Shown: positions 2,457 to 55,470 of the stretch, piece after piece
How the letters are laid out: every line of letters starts with the position of its first letter
Position numbering within the stretch: position 1 is the first letter of the stretch
Source of the DNA: a virus
IMG/VR virus record: IMGVR_UViG_3300044991_002272
Direction: 5' to 3' (one strand)
Length of the DNA: 64,000 bases
Made by a program: the position numbers and the translations under genes
Notes under the pieces: model-generated
Told to the model about the DNA's origin: nothing
Databases searched by the model: none
What the model saw: only the letters and a program-made list of their open reading frames with translations

Positions 2457-2703
2457 GACCTTTTCCTTTTTTAACAGTGTTAAGCTTACGCATAAATTTG
2501 GTTGATTCTTTACATAAGATGCTCTTTACTAACCGTTTGGTTAAATCTTCAGCTACTTCTGCGTCATAGCTGGCATGGAGTTGCTCAATAAGGTGAATAG
2601 CACTGCTGATTACATGAGCAGCTCTACTTTCAATAACTGAGTGTTTGTTTTTAACTGGAACGAGCGAATCCAATTCCTCAATAATAGATTTCTGTTTGTT
2701 CAA
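2449..2703 (-). CDS. Hypothetical protein
   Basis: 84-aa ORF (TTG start) below a TAAATA late promoter; coupled to the next gene. Confidence 0.6.
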   Translation of the reverse strand: MNKQKSIIEELDSLVPVKNKHSVIESRAAHVISSAIHLIEQLHASYDAEVAEDLTKRLVKSILCKESTKFMRKLNTVKKGKGHE

Positions 2704-2724
2704 AGCCTGTCAACCCAATTTTTG

Positions 2725-2751
2725 AATATTTATGCTCCCTCCATAAATATT
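2725..2751. promoter_or_regulatory. Back-to-back divergent late promoters forming a perfect inverted repeat
   Basis: AATATTTATG-CTCCCTC-CATAAATATT; a TAAATA points into each of the two divergent genes. Confidence 0.7.
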
Positions 2752-2777
2752 TTTGACACTGTTTTTGGGCTCACATT

Positions 2778-3125
2778 ATGACACAAATTTTAACAGAACA
2801 AATGAGAAGCTTGGCTAAAAGATTACATGAACTGGATAGTTCACCGGGCGCTGCAATGGTTCCTGGTAGTAAGGAAACGGTGCCTATAGAGCCAACGCAA
2901 GGGAGCGTTATGCCCAAGCAATTGGCTGACATTCTTGGTATGCAGGACATAAACTTATTCACCCGTGCCTGGAATAAATTACGTCAGGGCAGAGAACATC
3001 AGCTCACACGTCAAGAGATGGCAGAACTTAGCATTGCATTCATGAAATTGGTGCTGGCTGATCCCAATGATACAACCAAAGCCATGAGCTTGTTGCGCCG
3101 GATCAGCGCCAAAAATCCAGAGTAA
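2778..3125 (+). CDS. Hypothetical late protein (EQMRSLAKRL N-terminal motif)
   Basis: 115-aa ORF downstream of TAAATA. Confidence 0.65.
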   Translation: MTQILTEQMRSLAKRLHELDSSPGAAMVPGSKETVPIEPTQGSVMPKQLADILGMQDINLFTRAWNKLRQGREHQLTRQEMAELSIAFMKLVLADPNDTTKAMSLLRRISAKNPE

Positions 3126-26942: not shown

Positions 26943-27614
26943 CTATTTTTCCATCTTCTTTTTGTTTAGGTATGCTTGTCGACGAGCCTCTGACCAAAGT
27001 TTTCCTTTATGCGTTTGACTTATCAAGAGTTTACTCTCCTCTGTGTGTTTATAGATATGTCCTTCATGGCCTTTACGAATATTTTCAAGTGCTTGCCCTG
27101 TTCGTTTTGAACCCTTATAGGGGTTCGGCACTCCTTTTTTAGCTGCACTTATATTCTTACCACGTTCGGCTAGTTCTTCAGGAGTCATATTCACTTTGCA
27201 GCCTCTTTTTTGAGATGCAATTTTTTCAACATGTTCTGGACTCTTCTTTTTTCCTTTTGCTGCTAGACTCATTTTCTGTCTTGTTACTGTATTGTGAATC
27301 AACCCATAATTGGATTCTCCACCATCTGTCAGATTATGCAAGACACCAGTGCCGTTATCAAGACGACCCCAAAGCCTAATCAACTTCCTTTCCATGATAA
27401 GTGACCATAGTTCTGATAGATTACAAGCAACTATGACTATTCTCCATTTTTCTTTGGGAACTGGAACTCTATGTCTGCCATGCCAGGCTCTGTCGCCCTT
27501 GCCTTTACCAATATAATACGGTGTTCCTGCCTTACCATTTGCCGAATCTTTGATTCTCAAATAAGCGTAAACGTAATAATCTTCAGACAGAATTGTAGTG
27601 GGATAAATATCCAT
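26943..27614 (-). CDS. GIY-YIG homing endonuclease with NUMOD3 repeats
   Basis: YYVYAY...YYIGKG...R; NLTDGGE; KKSPEH and HTEESK NUMOD3-like motifs; true start ATG 27614. Confidence 0.9.
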
Positions 27615-27685
27615 GCTGTTGCTCCTCATAAGCGATAGAGCTGGTAGGTGTTGCAAGCACCGTGACCAGCAGCATGTATTTATCC
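27601..27685 (-). ncRNA. Structured cis-element A (three-way junction) over the promoter, RBS and start codon of the GIY-YIG gene
   Basis: GGATAAATA/TATTTATCC, CATGCT/AGCATG, GCTGGT/ACCAGC, CAC bulge, GGTG/CACC, GCT/AGC; covaries with element B. Confidence 0.75.
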
Positions 27686-33479: not shown

Positions 33480-33941
33480 CTATTTAGTTTCTCTGCTGAA
33501 CTCTCGCAATTGTTCCAGCAATGCGTTACGGTCCAAAACTTTGATATTCCCTGTATCAACTTCCTCATTTTTATCTGGGAAAGCTTTTTCCAATTTCAAT
33601 CGGTCTAAATCCAATTTCAATTGTTTCAAACGTCGGTCCATTTTGCTGTTCCGGGCATCCAAGGCAACTTTCAGCATTGTTGCGCTGGCTGTGAAAATTT
33701 CCCCTGCGTGTCGCATTTCAACTGTCATGCCGAGATCATTTAAATTCTTGCCCCACTCTATCGCCAAACTGGCAATTTCGTTCATTTCATCGTCATGAAC
33801 TTCACCAGCATCTTGATCCTTGAATTCCTTAACCAAATCTTTTGCTTTCTCAAGACTGGTTTCCAACAACTCTTGAGGAGATATGCTGTCTTCCAGTCTA
33901 GGCAAGTCAAAAGTTTGTTCCAGTTGATCAAAACGTCCCAT
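33480..33941 (-). CDS. Probable terminase small subunit
   Basis: Helical 153 aa; RHAGEIFTASATML; C-terminal VLDRNALLEQL; position near gp4 and terL. Confidence 0.55.
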   Translation of the reverse strand: MGRFDQLEQTFDLPRLEDSISPQELLETSLEKAKDLVKEFKDQDAGEVHDDEMNEIASLAIEWGKNLNDLGMTVEMRHAGEIFTASATMLKVALDARNSKMDRRLKQLKLDLDRLKLEKAFPDKNEEVDTGNIKVLDRNALLEQLREFSRETK

Positions 33942-34375
33942 TACTTGCCTTTTTGCTTGAATATGCTGTCTTCATTCACAACTCTAAATTTCAAACCCTG
34001 TTTATTTGCCCAAGCAAATGCAGCAGCCCATTTTGCTGTATTCACAATTACAAACGCTTTATCTCTTTTGCTTTTGGCATTTTCCATCAAGGTTTCTTTT
34101 TTGGGCTTGATTTCAATCAGCTCACCTATGTTGTTACCAGCTTTGTCCTGATATACAATTAGGAAATCAGGCACATAGAGACTTTGTTTGCCTGTTAAGG
34201 GGTTTTTGTAGGGTATTTTGATAAATTCACTAGCCCATTGAATTATGCTGGGATGAGTATCAAAAAAATGCATGCATGCTAATTCCCAAGAACTACGGAA
34301 GGTAGGTGAGGGATTACCAACCACTTTTCCAGGATTTTTCGGTGTGAAGGTGCCTTGACTGTATTTTATTGCCAT
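33941..34375 (-). CDS. Head completion nuclease (T4 gp4/TnsA-like)
   Basis: QGTFTPKNPGK..FRSSWE...WASE..IPY....YVPDF...EIKP. Confidence 0.9.
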   Translation of the reverse strand: MAIKYSQGTFTPKNPGKVVGNPSPTFRSSWELACMHFFDTHPSIIQWASEFIKIPYKNPLTGKQSLYVPDFLIVYQDKAGNNIGELIEIKPKKETLMENAKSKRDKAFVIVNTAKWAAAFAWANKQGLKFRVVNEDSIFKQKGK

Positions 34376-34391
34376 GCATCTATTTAGAATC

Positions 34392-49955: not shown

Positions 49956-50987
49956 TCACTTCCAGACGGGGTTACCGTCAGGGGCTTTCACCTCACTTGC
50001 CCAGGTTTGGCGAATTCTGGCCTTCACTACAGCTGGTATAGGCACATAATCCAACCGTTCAGCTATCTCGTCGCCATGTGTGTAAGCCCAGTCAAAAAAT
50101 CGCATCACTGTGAGGCTGTTGGTGGGGTTGCGAGGATCACGCGGCAACAGAATGTAGGTGGGACTCACAATAGGCCAACTGTTGGCGCCAGGCTGGTCAA
50201 CGAGGTCAACAGCAAAGTTAGGCACGTTCCAGTTGGCAGATGCTGCTGTAGCCTCAAAAGCCTTGTGAGTGGGCTTCACCCAATGTCCATCGCGGTTGCG
50301 GATTTGCGTGGTAACCAATCCAGCTTGCTGAGCATAGGCATTTTCCACATAACCAATGGCTCCCATGATCTGACGCACACTGGCGCTAACACCCTCGTTT
50401 CCTCGTGCTCCAGTGCCAGTGGGCCACTTAACTGAGGTGCCTGTACCTACCTGGGTGCGCCATTGCTCACTCACTGCCGATAGGTAACTGGCCCAAACAA
50501 AGGTTGTTCCGCTGCCATCTGCGCGATACACCACTGCAATAGCCAAATTAGGCAAGCGAATTGTTGGATTCAGTTCCACAATGCGTTGATCATTCCACTT
50601 TACGATCTTACCTAGATAGATGTCTGCCAACACTGGACCAGTGAGTCTCAGTTGCTCTCGCTCTAGACCCGGCACATGGACTGCTGCAACTAAACTGCCC
50701 ATAGCTGTTGGAAACTGCACTAAGTTGTTTTTTTCCAAATCCTCCTGTTTCATAGGAGCATCACTGGCCCCAAAATCCACAGTGCGGTTCCGGATTTGGT
50801 TTTGCCCAGCACCGCTGCCCACACTTTGGTAGTTGAGTGCAATACCAGTTTTCTTCGCTTCCTCTCCCCATTTTTGATAAAGCGGGTTGGGAAAAGTGGC
50901 ACCAGCACCGTTTATTGGTTGCGCAACTACACCAGTAGCACCTATTGCCATCAACGCAGCAGCCATCAACAATTTTTTCAAACCCAT
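49956..50987 (-). CDS. pstS: Phosphate ABC transporter substrate-binding protein
   Basis: Signal peptide; GAGATFP, YQSVGSGAG, DFGASDAP, RADGSGTT, GAIGYVE. Confidence 0.96.
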   Translation of the reverse strand: MGLKKLLMAAALMAIGATGVVAQPINGAGATFPNPLYQKWGEEAKKTGIALNYQSVGSGAGQNQIRNRTVDFGASDAPMKQEDLEKNNLVQFPTAMGSLVAAVHVPGLEREQLRLTGPVLADIYLGKIVKWNDQRIVELNPTIRLPNLAIAVVYRADGSGTTFVWASYLSAVSEQWRTQVGTGTSVKWPTGTGARGNEGVSASVRQIMGAIGYVENAYAQQAGLVTTQIRNRDGHWVKPTHKAFEATAASANWNVPNFAVDLVDQPGANSWPIVSPTYILLPRDPRNPTNSLTVMRFFDWAYTHGDEIAERLDYVPIPAVVKARIRQTWASEVKAPDGNPVWK

Positions 50988-51063
50988 AAAGTTTCCTTTC
51001 ATAGTTTCTTTTGGTAATCTCAGTTTGCCGACGATTTTCCAAATATGCAATGAGGCTCTAAAG

Positions 51064-51148: not shown

Positions 51149-52240
51149 ATGCCGCCGTTGACGTTCTGGAATGGAGTTGGTGCGAAAAACAAGGACTACA
51201 AGTTCTTTGATCGCATGGCATCTCAGTACATGAACATGGGTGGTACAGAATTTTATTGCCATAAGTACGTTGGGCCACTGAATCCAGATCCCAAGATTGT
51301 TACCCCTGACACAGACGAAACCAACTTACTCAGCATATCAGACTTAGTGAACTTGGAGGTGAGAGACAGAAAATATGACAACGACGTCTACAGCCTCAAG
51401 GGACACTACTTAGTCACTGACACAGAGTTTGATTTGAAGCAGTTTGGTTTTTTCCTGTCAACAGATACAATTTTCATAACCTTTCATATCAACCAAATGG
51501 TTACCCAACTGGGCCGACGGTTAATGAGTGGTGATGTACTTGAAGTGCTGCACATGAGAGACGACACTACTTTGGATGGCAGGCCCATCAACAAGTTTTA
51601 CGTGATCCAAGAGGGCACACGTCCTGCAGAAGGATTTAGCCCCACTTGGTGGGCACATCTATGGCGTGTGAAGTGCCAACCACTTACAGACAGTCAAGAG
51701 TTCCAGGACATTTTGAATAAAGAATTGGAAGATCGTGGAGATGGAATTGTGCCTGAGCCCAATCCTGACGGCAGCATGCCTACAATTGGTGATATCACTA
51801 GCGTATATGACAAAGAAATCAGCATCAACGATGCTGTTTTGGAAGAGGCTACTGCTAACGTGGCATTCAGAAACTGGCAAAGCACACACTTTTACATCCT
51901 TCAAGAGGACTTAGACCAACCTATTTCAGTATACAACTCAGACGGTATCCCACCAAACCAAAGCAAACCTGTGCCTTCTGGCACAAGTTTTCCCGCTGTT
52001 AACAAAGAAGGCGACTATTTCCTTCGCTTAGATTATGTTCCCCCTGTATTATACAAACGGACTGCATCAAAGTGGAAGAGAGTTGAGACCAATTATAGGG
52101 CCCCGTGGCTACCCGCTAACCGCGTGCTCACTAGCTTCATCAACAACAAAAACAAAACCACTCTCACAGATGGTAGTGTGATTGATGAACGCCAAAACCT
52201 GCGCACAGCTATCAAACCCAAACTAGATCCAGATATATAA
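51149..52240 (+). CDS. Neck/head-closure protein (T4 gp14-like)
   Basis: DFDLKQFGFFL, RRLMSGDVLE, WWAHLWRVKC; TAAATA at 51123. Confidence 0.8.
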   Translation: MPPLTFWNGVGAKNKDYKFFDRMASQYMNMGGTEFYCHKYVGPLNPDPKIVTPDTDETNLLSISDLVNLEVRDRKYDNDVYSLKGHYLVTDTEFDLKQFGFFLSTDTIFITFHINQMVTQLGRRLMSGDVLEVLHMRDDTTLDGRPINKFYVIQEGTRPAEGFSPTWWAHLWRVKCQPLTDSQEFQDILNKELEDRGDGIVPEPNPDGSMPTIGDITSVYDKEISINDAVLEEATANVAFRNWQSTHFYILQEDLDQPISVYNSDGIPPNQSKPVPSGTSFPAVNKEGDYFLRLDYVPPVLYKRTASKWKRVETNYRAPWLPANRVLTSFINNKNKTTLTDGSVIDERQNLRTAIKPKLDPDI

Positions 52241-52320
52241 ATACGGTTGTGGTTCACGGGAGGTGAGATTCCCTAACCACTCTAAACGCTATGTAGGAGC
52301 ATTCAGCAATGCGTATTTAT
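52237..52320 (+). ncRNA. Structured cis-element B (three-way junction) over the promoter, RBS and start codon of the HNH gene
   Basis: ATAAATACG/CGTATTTAT, GTT/AGC, GTGGTT/AACCAC, CAC bulge, GGGA/TCCC, GCT/AGC; TATAAATA at 52236. Confidence 0.75.
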
Positions 52321-53067
52321 CGCAATCCGTCTAACTATCGTGCAATTTATGAACAACATTATGGCCCTGTCCCCAAAGATCAAAATGGGCGAACTTATGA
52401 CATACACCATATAGATGGTGACCATACTAATAATGATCCTAGTAATTTACGAGCAGTTAGCATTCAAGAACATTATGATATACATTATCAACAAAAGGAC
52501 TATATGGCATGCTATATGATACGATTACGCATAGATAAAAGTCCTGAAATGTTATCAGAATTAAGCCGCAAAGGCCAGGAAAAAAGGGTAATTGATGGAA
52601 CCCACCATATGTTAGGTGGCCATGTTCAACGTAAAAGAGTTGAGAATGGCACCCATCCATGGCAAGACAAAGAATGGCACAAGCGCAGAGAACAAGAGAA
52701 GGTTGATAATAGAAGTCATATGTTTTTGAACCCTGAGATATCAAGAGCAATAACCTCCAAAAGATTAGCCGACGGGACACACAATTTTTTAAACAATACA
52801 TATGCGAAAGACTGGTGGGACAATAAACCAGAAGACGTTCTAGCTGAATATCGTAAAAATGCTCAGGAGAGGCAACGTAATAAGGTGGCTGATGGTAGTC
52901 ATCACTTCTTAAACAGTGGTGAAAAATCTAGAGAAATCCACCGCAAACTTATTGAGGAAGGCAGGCACCCTTCTCAGGTGATAAGGACCTGCCCACATTG
53001 TGGTAAAGAAGGGCGCGGAGCTGTTATGTTTAAGCATCACTTTGATAAATGCAAACAGCAAACGTAG
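52309..53067 (+). CDS. HNH homing endonuclease with GTH repeats and a C-terminal Zn ribbon
   Basis: DIHHIDGDHTNNDPSNL...EH..IH; GTHHML/GTHPWQ/GTHNFL/GSHHFL; CPHCGKEG. Confidence 0.9.
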   Translation: MRIYRNPSNYRAIYEQHYGPVPKDQNGRTYDIHHIDGDHTNNDPSNLRAVSIQEHYDIHYQQKDYMACYMIRLRIDKSPEMLSELSRKGQEKRVIDGTHHMLGGHVQRKRVENGTHPWQDKEWHKRREQEKVDNRSHMFLNPEISRAITSKRLADGTHNFLNNTYAKDWWDNKPEDVLAEYRKNAQERQRNKVADGSHHFLNSGEKSREIHRKLIEEGRHPSQVIRTCPHCGKEGRGAVMFKHHFDKCKQQT

Positions 53068-53579: not shown

Positions 53580-55462
53580 TGGAATATTGGTACAACCAAC
53601 AGCTACGGCAGTATAGACTTCAAGTCATACGAGCATTCAGCAACTTCAGTGTAAGCATGGGTATCAACAGCGACGGCACCCCGAAGCTGAGGCGAGTGCC
53701 TTGTCGCTATGGTGACCCTTCACGTTTGGCAGAAACCATCACAAATGCCAACAGTGAAAACAAATTACCAACAGCCCCTTTCATCTCAGTCTATTTGACA
53801 GCCATGAGTTTGGCACCCAACCGGCGTCATGCTCCAAGCCTTGTTTCAACACAAAACGTTATTGAACGTGAATACGACGGAGAAAATAGTCGCTACCTAG
53901 GTACACAAGGTAACAGAAGCACTGTTGAACGTTATATGGCTGTACCTTTTGACCTGACCTTCAACGTAGACTTTTGGACCAGTAACCTTAACCAAAAAGA
54001 AGAGCTTATTGAGCAAACCCAAGTACTCTATAATGGAATGATTGATATTCAAACATCGAACAATCCCTTGGACTGGACAGCTATTACAACCCTTGAGCCC
54101 ACAAACATCACTTGGAGCAGTCGAAGTATTCCCATTGGTACAGAAAACCCCATTGATGTTTGTACTGTTGAATACAAAGTGCCAATTTTCATAAATCCAC
54201 CAGCCAAAGTAAAACTCCAAAAGATAATTCAAGAGATTGTAACAAATATACGTGAAGGTGAATATGATCCCAACACAATGGAGTGGACCGAACAGTCTTT
54301 GCTGAGTAGAGTGTTAACAACTCCTCTGGATGCCTGTATTGCCATGGCCAATGCAGGTGAAAACACCTGGGAAATCAGCCTACAAAGTCCTTCTGGTAGT
54401 ACGATTGATCCTCAGACATTGCCGACCCGTGTGTTGGGCAGAAAAAATCCTGTATTGACACCTGGTACTACATTCAAGTTCAATGGGCAAGCTATAACAA
54501 TACCCAACACAAGTATTGATGATTTAATCAACTTGATTCGAGTGCGAACTGTTGAACCCAGTTTGAACGCAGTTTTTAATTTGAATCAGCAAATTGAATT
54601 TTGGAACATGACTGGTGGAGATATTGTCTTGGAAAACGTGGAAGGCACACCAATCCAGGATTTGGGATTTCAGCCCACCATATATAAGGGCGGAACCTTG
54701 GCTTGGTGGAGGCTCTTGGACAAATATGGCGCAGTAAAACCCCAAAGCAGTTTCCAAGAAAACGCTAGCCAAATAAGGCTGTTGTCAACAGATGATCTTG
54801 ACAACAGAGACTCTGACATTGTGGGATATATTGATTTTCATCCCACCAACCAAAACTACTTGATTTGGAAAGGCGAACTTTCCAGTTGGCCTGGAGATCA
54901 ACTTCCTCCCATCACTGCTGTTATTGATCCACAGCGCACTTACCCTGGCTCTGGCTTGACTGAGGAAAGATTTGGTCAAAGATATTTGTTGACAAATGAA
55001 GTTGCATTTCAAAGCGGCGCGTGGGGCAATGTTCAGGCAATACCAAATGTGCAGGCACTGGTAGTTGGTAAGGTCAGCAACCACGAACTGGTAATAGAAC
55101 CTGTTGATCAAGCCCAGTTAAGCCTGAACCGCAGCATGCAAATCCTATTTGGGTCAGGCATTACACAAACTGCAAGTGTTGTGCAGATTGTACAATTGAA
55201 TGCACTTCAATACCAAGTGGTTTTGTCAGGAGACTCTGTTGCACAAATTGGAGATTTTGTGCAAGTAATTTACCCTGTTATTGCCAACGATATAATTGAA
55301 TACAACGGCTCACAATGGGTTTTGGCCTTTGACAGCAGCAGCCCTTTGCAGACATTGGTGTTGAATCAATACAGTCAAAAATGGTTTCTTTGGACGAATC
55401 AAGAATGGAAAGCTTTTCCCAAGAGCACGTATACACAGGGCTTATGGCGCCTCAGCCTCTAA
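53579..55462 (+). CDS. Tail terminator (T4 gp15-like) with long C-terminal extension
   Basis: YWYNQQLRQY..Q..RAFS, VP.RYGD, VPFDLTFNVDFWT, EQ....YN. Confidence 0.8.
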   Translation: MEYWYNQQLRQYRLQVIRAFSNFSVSMGINSDGTPKLRRVPCRYGDPSRLAETITNANSENKLPTAPFISVYLTAMSLAPNRRHAPSLVSTQNVIEREYDGENSRYLGTQGNRSTVERYMAVPFDLTFNVDFWTSNLNQKEELIEQTQVLYNGMIDIQTSNNPLDWTAITTLEPTNITWSSRSIPIGTENPIDVCTVEYKVPIFINPPAKVKLQKIIQEIVTNIREGEYDPNTMEWTEQSLLSRVLTTPLDACIAMANAGENTWEISLQSPSGSTIDPQTLPTRVLGRKNPVLTPGTTFKFNGQAITIPNTSIDDLINLIRVRTVEPSLNAVFNLNQQIEFWNMTGGDIVLENVEGTPIQDLGFQPTIYKGGTLAWWRLLDKYGAVKPQSSFQENASQIRLLSTDDLDNRDSDIVGYIDFHPTNQNYLIWKGELSSWPGDQLPPITAVIDPQRTYPGSGLTEERFGQRYLLTNEVAFQSGAWGNVQAIPNVQALVVGKVSNHELVIEPVDQAQLSLNRSMQILFGSGITQTASVVQIVQLNALQYQVVLSGDSVAQIGDFVQVIYPVIANDIIEYNGSQWVLAFDSSSPLQTLVLNQYSQKWFLWTNQEWKAFPKSTYTQGLWRLSL

Positions 55463-55470
55463 ATAATCCT

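Follow-up and report, generated by a model that had tools for sequence, protein, structure and literature searches.

We found that a portable cassette of approximately 85 bp, joined to the opening three or four codons of free-standing homing endonuclease genes, is carried by uncultured aquatic T4-like myoviruses, some with jumbo genomes, and that its helices have very probably been selected on the strand opposite the endonuclease gene. Two copies lie in the 64,000-nucleotide (nt) stretch of viral DNA analyzed here (IMG/VR virus record IMGVR_UViG_3300044991_002272; hereafter the window), copy A at positions 27601-27685 on the minus strand, that is, in the reverse complement of the window, and copy B at 52237-52320 on the plus strand. 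The anatomy of the element, its covariation, its strand asymmetry, the use of its box across the window, and its link to endonuclease genes were observed: two inverted [A/C]TAAATA boxes face each other approximately 70 bp apart and enclose two hairpins. We put at about even the chance that these boxes are facing late promoters bracketing a cis-antisense RNA that would mask the ribosome-binding site (RBS) of the endonuclease. A sequence-only reading of the same DNA had drawn both copies as a three-way junction in the mRNA leader; its observation was real and larger than its author knew, and the interpretation belongs on the other strand.

Three pattern scans of viral contigs together recovered at least 233 loci, two of the scans giving at least 118 loci each. 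With two unrelated copies from metagenomes as its basis, a covariance model (R1) identified at least 207 full-length copies, at least 175 of which were distinct: at least 205 in viral contigs and, in the window, only copies A (E 1e-9) and B (E 4e-8), whose likeness is far beyond chance. Up to three copies were present on a single contig (of 13 kb), and the record closest to the window (G001) contained one. Nearly every copy overlapped the start of an endonuclease-like open reading frame (ORF), so that the tie to endonuclease genes first proposed for the window genome extends across the family. The element has no match in Rfam 15, as had been supposed: no family reached the gathering score in the window, and searches of both strands of three carrier loci (L001, L002, and L034) at E ≤ 1 returned nothing on the element.

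The sequences and coordinates originally given for the two copies proved exact, and the three-way-junction fold was obtained for each copy alone (copy A, -31.0 kcal/mol, z -4.1; copy B, -23.4 kcal/mol, z -2.6). The five compensatory changes reported between them are likewise present, three in P2 (GCTGGT/ACCAGC versus GTGGTT/AACCAC) and two in P3 (GGTG/CACC versus GGGA/TCCC). In copy A, the putative gene-strand late-promoter box ATAAATA (27677-27683, minus strand), recognized by its sequence and by box use across the window, is followed by a bulged P2/P3 hairpin (27640-27670) of 6 bp, a 3x1 internal loop, and 4 bp, supported by family-wide covariation, and by an extended P4 helix (27616-27638) that has 8 bp on the plus strand, antisense to the gene. 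The P4 loop displays AGG of the Shine-Dalgarno (SD) sequence AGGAG (27626-27622) on the gene strand and CCU, the anti-SD, on the opposite strand, the final AG of the SD being located within the P4 stem. A second ATAAATA box (27603-27609, plus strand) reads as TATTTAT in endonuclease codons 2-4. The same parts follow one another in copy B: the gene-strand box (52237-52243, plus strand), the bulged P2/P3 hairpin (52249-52280), the extended P4 helix with 9 bp on the minus strand (52282-52306; SD AGGAG at 52295-52299), and the second box (52314-52320, minus strand) in codons 2-4 (CGT ATT TAT).

Across the family, P2 and P3 covaried strongly, as the comparison of A and B had led one to expect, with 47 and 43 distinct helices, respectively, and 97-98% pairing; the alignments behind the pair counts were fitted to covariance models, and P2/P3 were recounted with a model-free parse. 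Adjacent to them we recognized an 8-bp helix, CUAACGCU/AGCAUCAG, the two ends of which are the "UCUA junction", formerly held to be unpaired, and the conserved CAGC before the ATG. Part of the GCU-N7-AGC hairpin proposed around the SD also survives, in that its 3-bp pairing exists, although as a portion of the 8-bp helix and not as a short hairpin standing alone. A C(A/G)C bulge opposite C/U was conserved in every copy. Such a bulge is what might be expected of an mRNA element that acts like a riboswitch or binds a protein, perhaps the cognate endonuclease in autoregulation, and I-TevI is known to autorepress at an operator overlapping its late promoter (PMC2988022). We nevertheless regard an element of this kind as extremely improbable. 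Most of the bases once listed as conserved and unpaired are paired or belong to promoter boxes, which explains the loop conservation that had been attributed to a ligand pocket, and no pocket-like multi-helix junction was supported. Moreover, the genes downstream are those of endonucleases, and because their proteins combine unrelated nuclease and DNA-binding modules, no single cognate protein is available.

The strand on which the helices are maintained could be read from their wobble pairs, since what is A·C on one strand is G·U on its complement. On the gene strand, P2 comprised 926-1023 Watson-Crick pairs, no G·U, and 15-18 A·C (159-173 distinct elements), while the extended P4 comprised 969 Watson-Crick pairs, a single G·U, and 284 A·C. 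In P2, such pairs were spread over 15 different helices, and pair 48-66, in P4, was A·C in 154 of 156 elements, and hence an invariant G·U on the opposite strand. Column shuffles predicted 81 A·C and 68 G·U for P2 and 41 G·U for P4; given these departures and the number of P2 helices involved, the bias does not come from composition or from a single ancestry. Nor does it come from the search patterns, because each retrieval set left one partner of pair 48-66 free. P3 was neutral (597 Watson-Crick, six G·U, and three A·C on the gene strand), most of its few non-Watson-Crick cells belonging to the pair that closes the loop, the position to which the model-free parse assigned all T·G cells. The asymmetry in P2 and P4 therefore argues that these two helices are not maintained for an RNA of the gene strand, which had been taken as the folded species.

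A covariance model of the opposite strand (R2) led to the same strand. Standard pairs occupied 99.4% of 1080 cells, and both sides changed in 16 of 18 pairs; for the three-way junction on the gene strand, 87.2% of cells were paired. The covariation score of the opposite strand was 0.616; shuffles gave 0.163 and slid partners no more than 0.065. RNAalifold returned -21.9 and -22.8 for the opposite strand versus -13.8 and -14.3 for the gene strand, and of 123 elements, 115 had their lower minimum free energy on the opposite strand, as did both window copies. Specifically, the predicted antisense RNA of copy A folded at -24.6 kcal/mol (gene strand, -17.2) and that of copy B at -22.1 kcal/mol with a z of -3.0 (gene strand, -17.9).

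The P3 loops occur as reverse-complement pairs (TTGGCG 14/CGCCAA 10, CGGCAA 6/TTGCCG 5, CTGCAA 5/TTGCAG 4, and TCCCCA 6/TGGGGA 6), which indicates recurrent flip inversions of the hairpin loop. Loops in both orientations are a signature of hairpin-mediated inversion in DNA and, together with the 98-99% Watson-Crick pairing of P2/P3 and the position of the cassette at the border of a mobile gene, they would suit a DNA-level hairpin, formed in template-strand single-stranded DNA or as a cruciform, with a role in recombination, replication, or mobility of the cassette. Loop inversions could, however, be a mutational by-product of any hairpin, and the 8-bp helix contains an invariant G·T and a second, frequent one, which are costly in DNA and ordinary in RNA. 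The helices are also exactly bracketed by a promoter box (5 nt away) and a U-rich tract, and one hairpin loop holds the exact complement of the SD. We therefore consider a purely DNA-level role quite unlikely.

The outer stem, TAAATA/TATTTA, in which the late promoter had been proposed to pair with the Ile-Tyr codons of the gene, did not stand up to the family alignment. It exhibited no covariation and is merely an invariant pair of boxes: where the 5′ box was CTAAATA, the 3′ box remained TATTTAT 27 times and was compensated once. Positions flanking the boxes paired no better than shuffled columns, the box-to-P2 and CAGC-to-TATTTA spacers (both with a mode of 5 nt) were uncorrelated (r = -0.02), and the stem was absent from the RNAalifold prediction. 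Over 123 elements, the mean unpaired probabilities of SD and AUG were 0.42 and 0.37 in read-through transcripts versus 0.44 and 0.42 in late-start transcripts, and only in 21% of elements did the AUG gain more than 0.2 in the late transcript. For copy A it rose from 0.02 to 0.39, and for copy B it moved in the wrong direction.

These results bear on a temporal mRNA switch of the T4 type. According to this explanation, the box pair would close a three-way junction that hides AUG and SD in read-through early or middle transcripts, whereas transcripts from the late promoter, devoid of the 5′ arm, would be translated, with P2/P3 serving as a 5′-terminal stabilizer of the late mRNA. The boxes are complementary in 140 of 173 elements, the modal 5-nt spacer puts the predicted late start on the first base of P2, and for copy A there are also an outer stem of 16 bp and the rise in predicted AUG accessibility given above. 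Precedent is strong, too, since late-promoter hairpins that sequester the RBS are known for I-TevI, I-TevII, I-TevIII, segB, Aeh1 mobE, and T4 e and soc (PMC2988022). Like these, the cassette has a late-promoter box at the 5′ edge of a structure beside an endonuclease start and presumably confers late expression (PMC2988022). T4-type hairpins nevertheless consist of one stable hairpin whose 5′ arm pairs with SD and AUG, whereas in the cassette the pairing from promoter to start amounts to a 6-7-bp A/U box that does not covary, and the helices that do covary are enclosed by it and fitted to the opposite strand. The near-constant accessibility of SD and AUG, the independent spacers, and the wobble asymmetry of P2 and P4 all speak against such a switch, which we deem unlikely.

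What the arms of a T4-type switch look like was seen in endonuclease leaders of three cultured cyanophages, Synechococcus phage S-B68 (L248, 690-800), S-SRM01 (L245, 1080-1195), and B23 (L246, 690-800). Each has, in order, ATAAATA, an arm of 15-17 nt (e.g., GTCTAACGGGTCGCA), a canonical GC-rich intrinsic terminator with a T-run, a second [C/A]TAAATA, and a complementary arm over the RBS. This arrangement looks like a T4-type switch with an added terminator, and its arms of 15-17 bp weigh against the same mechanism in the cassette.

An RBS-sequestering mRNA hairpin of the simple T4/Aeh1 type was also the interpretation given by Dassa, London, Stoddard, and Pietrokovski in 2009 to leaders of "fractured-gene" homing endonucleases in marine metagenomes (PMC2677866). 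Their paper describes GIY-YIG and Vsr-like endonuclease genes, free-standing and derived from T4-like phages, with a 5′ hairpin in 15 of 16 and TATAAATA in 10, two conserved motifs that "usually complement each other", and a hairpin that persists where the endonuclease was lost (PMC2677866). Their hairpins are likely the present motif, and a leader of hairpin plus TATAAATA common to GIY-YIG and Vsr-like endonucleases was thus already reported in 2009 (PMC2677866). In contrast to our analysis, the text of the paper contains no covariance analysis, strand asymmetry, second facing box, or census (PMC2677866).

Use of the box in the window supported its identity as a promoter. MTAAATA occurs 18 times, four of them within the two elements, and of the 14 other sites, 11 precede an ORF start on the matching strand by 5-90 nt, mostly by no more than 40 nt, a placement from which we take MTAAATA to be the T4-type late-promoter box of the window phage. 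Two CTAAATA boxes, at 34381-34387 (minus strand) and 55459-55465 (plus strand), are exactly 5 nt upstream of the ATG of their ORFs (33941-34375, minus strand, and ~55471 onwards, plus strand), a spacing suggestive of late mRNAs that have no leader and begin with the A of the AUG, the sixth base after the box. Applied to the element, this spacing predicts a gene-strand start at the first base of P2 and an opposite-strand start at the G that faces CAGC, a single base ahead of the 8-bp helix. Elsewhere in the window, two ATAAATA boxes stand back to back on opposite strands, 10 bp apart (2727-2749), in a 670-bp intergenic gap (2457-3125) and may be a divergent pair of late promoters.

Both boxes were also widely retained in the family. 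In 163 of 173 elements, TAAATA preceded P2 by 3-5 nt, and the opposite-strand ATAAATA, the predicted antisense promoter, was present in codons 2-4 in 146 of 173. The latter reads TATTTAT on the gene strand and is found in three frames relative to the ATG (ATG NNT ATT TAT, ATG ATA TTT AT, and ATG TAT TTA), while its distance from CAGC is 5 nt in 98 of 142 elements, with the ATG sliding within the gap; this fixed distance irrespective of frame points to a signal at the level of nucleotides. Homologous endonucleases of cultured cyanophages begin with MNYYTYAYL and do not have the MxIY extension (three leaders only), suggesting that the first codons belong to the cassette. In canonical GIY-YIG members (MIIYKITN...; e.g., L161 5875-6423, minus strand, and L041 9509-10141), ATT TAT encodes the I-Y of the GIY motif, which may be the evolutionary origin of the opposite-strand box.

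At the other end of the element, the opposite-strand P2′/P3′ hairpin (mean -10.3 kcal/mol) is followed by ACUUUUAUUUAU or a similar tract. At least five U in 8 nt, beginning 0-2 nt past the hairpin, were found for 158 of 173 elements when the opposite strand was read and for 1 of 173 when the gene strand was read, using a custom parse, as a simple terminator scan cannot handle bulged stems. This tract, with essential phage core genes as the upstream neighbors of the element, would also suit insulation only: the antisense box would be an unavoidable by-product of the promoter complement, hairpin and U-tract would stop stray transcription before it entered the upstream gene in antisense, and the RNA would have no regulatory part. 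Insulation leaves unexplained the second covarying helix, with its invariant G·U, its anti-SD loop, and its position flush with the predicted 5′ end, and it presupposes the unsupported outer stem; as a full account we hold it to be very unlikely.

Antisense control, the reading that we favor, would operate as follows. The predicted box in codons 2-4 would fire late and produce an RNA of approximately 60-66 nt, starting approximately 6 nt downstream of the box, at the G opposite the last C of CAGC. Its 5′ end would form the 8-bp hairpin, with a 7-nt loop showing CCU, the complement of the gene's SD, and the bulged 3′ hairpin with its U-rich tail would both end and stabilize it, an architecture typical of small RNAs in bacteria. 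In the window, the predicted RNAs would span 27615-27680 (plus strand; two hairpins) for copy A and 52240-52308 (minus strand) for copy B, with both termini of each placed by prediction. Such an RNA would be perfectly complementary to the entire 5′ leader of the mRNA that the facing promoter would supply for the endonuclease, would mask the RBS and perhaps also invite RNase III, and would thereby keep a potentially toxic nuclease low. Transcription from either box, the RNA ends, and repression are what we infer here. Complementarity to the SD comes with any RNA encoded in cis; the additional feature is the display of the anti-SD in a 7-nt loop. On the gene strand the same helices carry A·C mismatches, and the two on the mRNA would leave its own SD hairpin weak, as would suit an mRNA open to translation whenever the antisense RNA is missing. 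Copy A has a further complementarity, CATGCTG/CAGCATG, which could add AUG sequestration in the style of T4 to read-through transcripts. Since the SD-proximal helix is nearly identical between copies, the RNA of one copy might damp others in the same genome (multicopy inhibition).

Several observations count against this proposal. Most of the U-tract mirrors the sense box as its reverse complement, beginning approximately 2 nt past the stem; in both window copies it is poor, and a typical element went undetected by the simple terminator scan. The antisense box, in turn, could be a by-product of complementing the sense promoter. Near-exclusive Watson-Crick pairing also suits a DNA-level hairpin, some variants with a AGCAAUCAGC bulge (e.g., L084) fold no better on the opposite strand, and alignments fitted to covariance models lean toward the modeled structure. 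Taking all of this into account, we suggest only tentatively, and at somewhat less than an even chance, that the cassette represents an unnamed and very abundant family of late-promoter cis-antisense small RNAs, a portable "silencer cassette" shared by unrelated endonuclease families of aquatic T4-like and jumbo phages.

Literature searches found no antisense RNA at endonuclease leaders. The closest parallels that we can name are the cis-antisense controls reportedly described for IS10 RNA-OUT/RNA-IN by Simons and Kleckner in 1983 and for SymR/symE by Kawano, Aravind, and Storz in 2007. In these systems, promoters face each other, the antisense promoter is found within the beginning of the coding region or a little beyond it, and a stably folded RNA of approximately 70 nt covers the 5′ end and SD of the mRNA. 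The cassette resembles them in its bulged stems and, as predicted here, in holding down the DNA-cutting protein of a selfish element. It differs in belonging to a lytic phage, in having two predicted promoters of the late (gp55) type, and in lacking any sequence relation to them. A further antisense RNA, CfrI of cyanophage S-PM2, was reportedly described by Millard et al. in 2010 as approximately 225 nt long and as extending over the 3′ end of an endonuclease gene and the psbA junction. CfrI is likewise an antisense RNA of a T4-like aquatic phage that is tied to a homing endonuclease gene, but it reportedly does not cover the 5′ leader; model R2 had no match in S-PM2.

The proteins encoded downstream of the cassette were diverse. 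Among 150 non-redundant proteins, Pfam domains comprised NUMOD3 (38), HNH (17), HNH_3 (16), GIY-YIG (12), HNH_5 (seven), SegE_GIY-YIG (five), and TnsA-like (two), and most of the 150 fell in PHROGs "homing endonuclease" families. Singletons were PD-(D/E)XK-like or zinc-finger endonucleases, or NUMOD3/zinc-finger proteins devoid of a nuclease. At least three nuclease superfamilies (GIY-YIG, HNH, and PD-(D/E)XK-like), plus nuclease-less relatives, are thus represented, and the suggestion that the module moves independently of the nuclease family is borne out. Two of the nuclease-less proteins (L002 7689-8087, 133 aa, and L003 6428-6880, minus strand, 151 aa) have in common the N-terminus MSIYCP.AEALGI and a C-terminal CPHCGK zinc finger and differ in the middle, where one has WNKGKKG (NUMOD3-like) repeats and the other GTHxF repeats, implying that the DNA-binding parts of the endonucleases are shuffled as modules. 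An endonuclease-like domain in L049 (1725-2660, minus strand), L044 (4037-4597, minus strand), and L070 matched phrog_218, labeled "head closure" (E 1e-59), as well as endonuclease and Holliday-junction-resolvase PHROGs, and its relatives matched TnsA-like Pfam models; the phrog_218 label has probably been misapplied to a PD-(D/E)XK/Vsr-like endonuclease. In approximately 15 cases, elements with intact helices and boxes preceded truncated or frameshifted endonuclease ORFs of 4-56 aa (e.g., L020 3330-3341, and, on the minus strand, L071 7675-7719, L065 1326-1442, and L219 4585-4743). The cassette can therefore outlive its endonuclease gene, as at locus gp41-7 of Dassa et al.

Genes flanking the elements included the T4-like core genes Gp23, UvsY, Gp59, PhoH, helicase, clamp loader, and tail tube. 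Neighboring ORFs were picked automatically and included shadow ORFs, which makes strand statistics unreliable, and they were used for family tallies only; no intein, the feature of the split-intein loci of Dassa et al., was among the 25 commonest of the 68 Pfam families matched by flanking ORFs. Upstream of the element on one 9-kb viral contig was a block of approximately 26 tRNA genes (L002 571-4590). Covariance-model searches found no copy in eleven cultured phages (Sinorhizobium phage Phosso, Agrobacterium phage Atu_ph07, Vibrio phage 2.275.O, S-PM2, Syn9, P-SSM2, Aeh1, S-SRM01, B23, S-B68, and ACG-2014f), although with a loose first filter this absence is no proof; the set includes cyanophages whose endonucleases are 45-50% identical to family members. 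Weak model matches in HTVC008M (E 0.3) and S-N03 (E 0.03) were dropped, there being no endonuclease gene attached. A blastn search with a typical 84-nt element gave one chance-level match, blastn being too insensitive for this purpose.

In the window, the gene behind copy A (26943-27614, minus strand; ATG at 27614-27612) encodes a 223-aa protein with NUMOD3 and a divergent GIY-YIG domain. The Pfam GIY-YIG model did not detect this protein, and a hhalign comparison with canonical GIY-YIG neighbors gave a weak match (25%); a profile of its N-terminal domain (34 sequences; invariant residues Y14, Y16, Y34, G36, R42, E75, and N94), however, matched the solved GIY-YIG domain 9u75 (E 3.4e-6) and UvrC (E 0.05), upholding the original assignment. 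The gene is located between gp32-like and UvsX-like genes that directly adjoin each other in relatives of the window phage, and it is thus a classic free-standing homing endonuclease insertion. Judged by UvsX, the closest cultured relatives are jumbo phages of the T4 superfamily. Behind copy B, the gene at 52309-53067 (plus strand) encodes a 252-aa protein with GTHxF repeats and a C-terminal zinc finger, and it is an HNH endonuclease, as first called (PF13392 HNH_3, E 1.3e-12, 47.5 bits against a cut-off of 24.8; phrog_12324, E 1e-44). In blastn searches of 50,697 phage records, the copy A gene with its leader had no match, and the copy B gene with its leader matched only inside the HNH coding region of Salmonella and Escherichia T4-like phages. 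Separately, the window contains an auxiliary metabolic gene for a PstS-like periplasmic phosphate-binding protein (49956-51050, minus strand), on the strand opposite its neighbors and beside baseplate-like genes.

Homing endonuclease genes are selfish DNA cutters that a phage must keep almost silent, and for T4 the one means known of doing so is an mRNA hairpin bypassed by a late promoter. The cassette is far more widespread and is common to GIY-YIG, HNH, and PD-(D/E)XK-type endonucleases. The comparison of G·U with A·C counts in covarying helices, which was informative here, offers a general method to tell the functional strand of a structured element. If the antisense proposal is true, it would supply a clean new RNA family for Rfam and for the annotation of endonucleases in viromes, would explain why unrelated endonuclease genes have common first codons (MxIY), and would add a layer of antisense RNA to the control of endonucleases in lytic phages.

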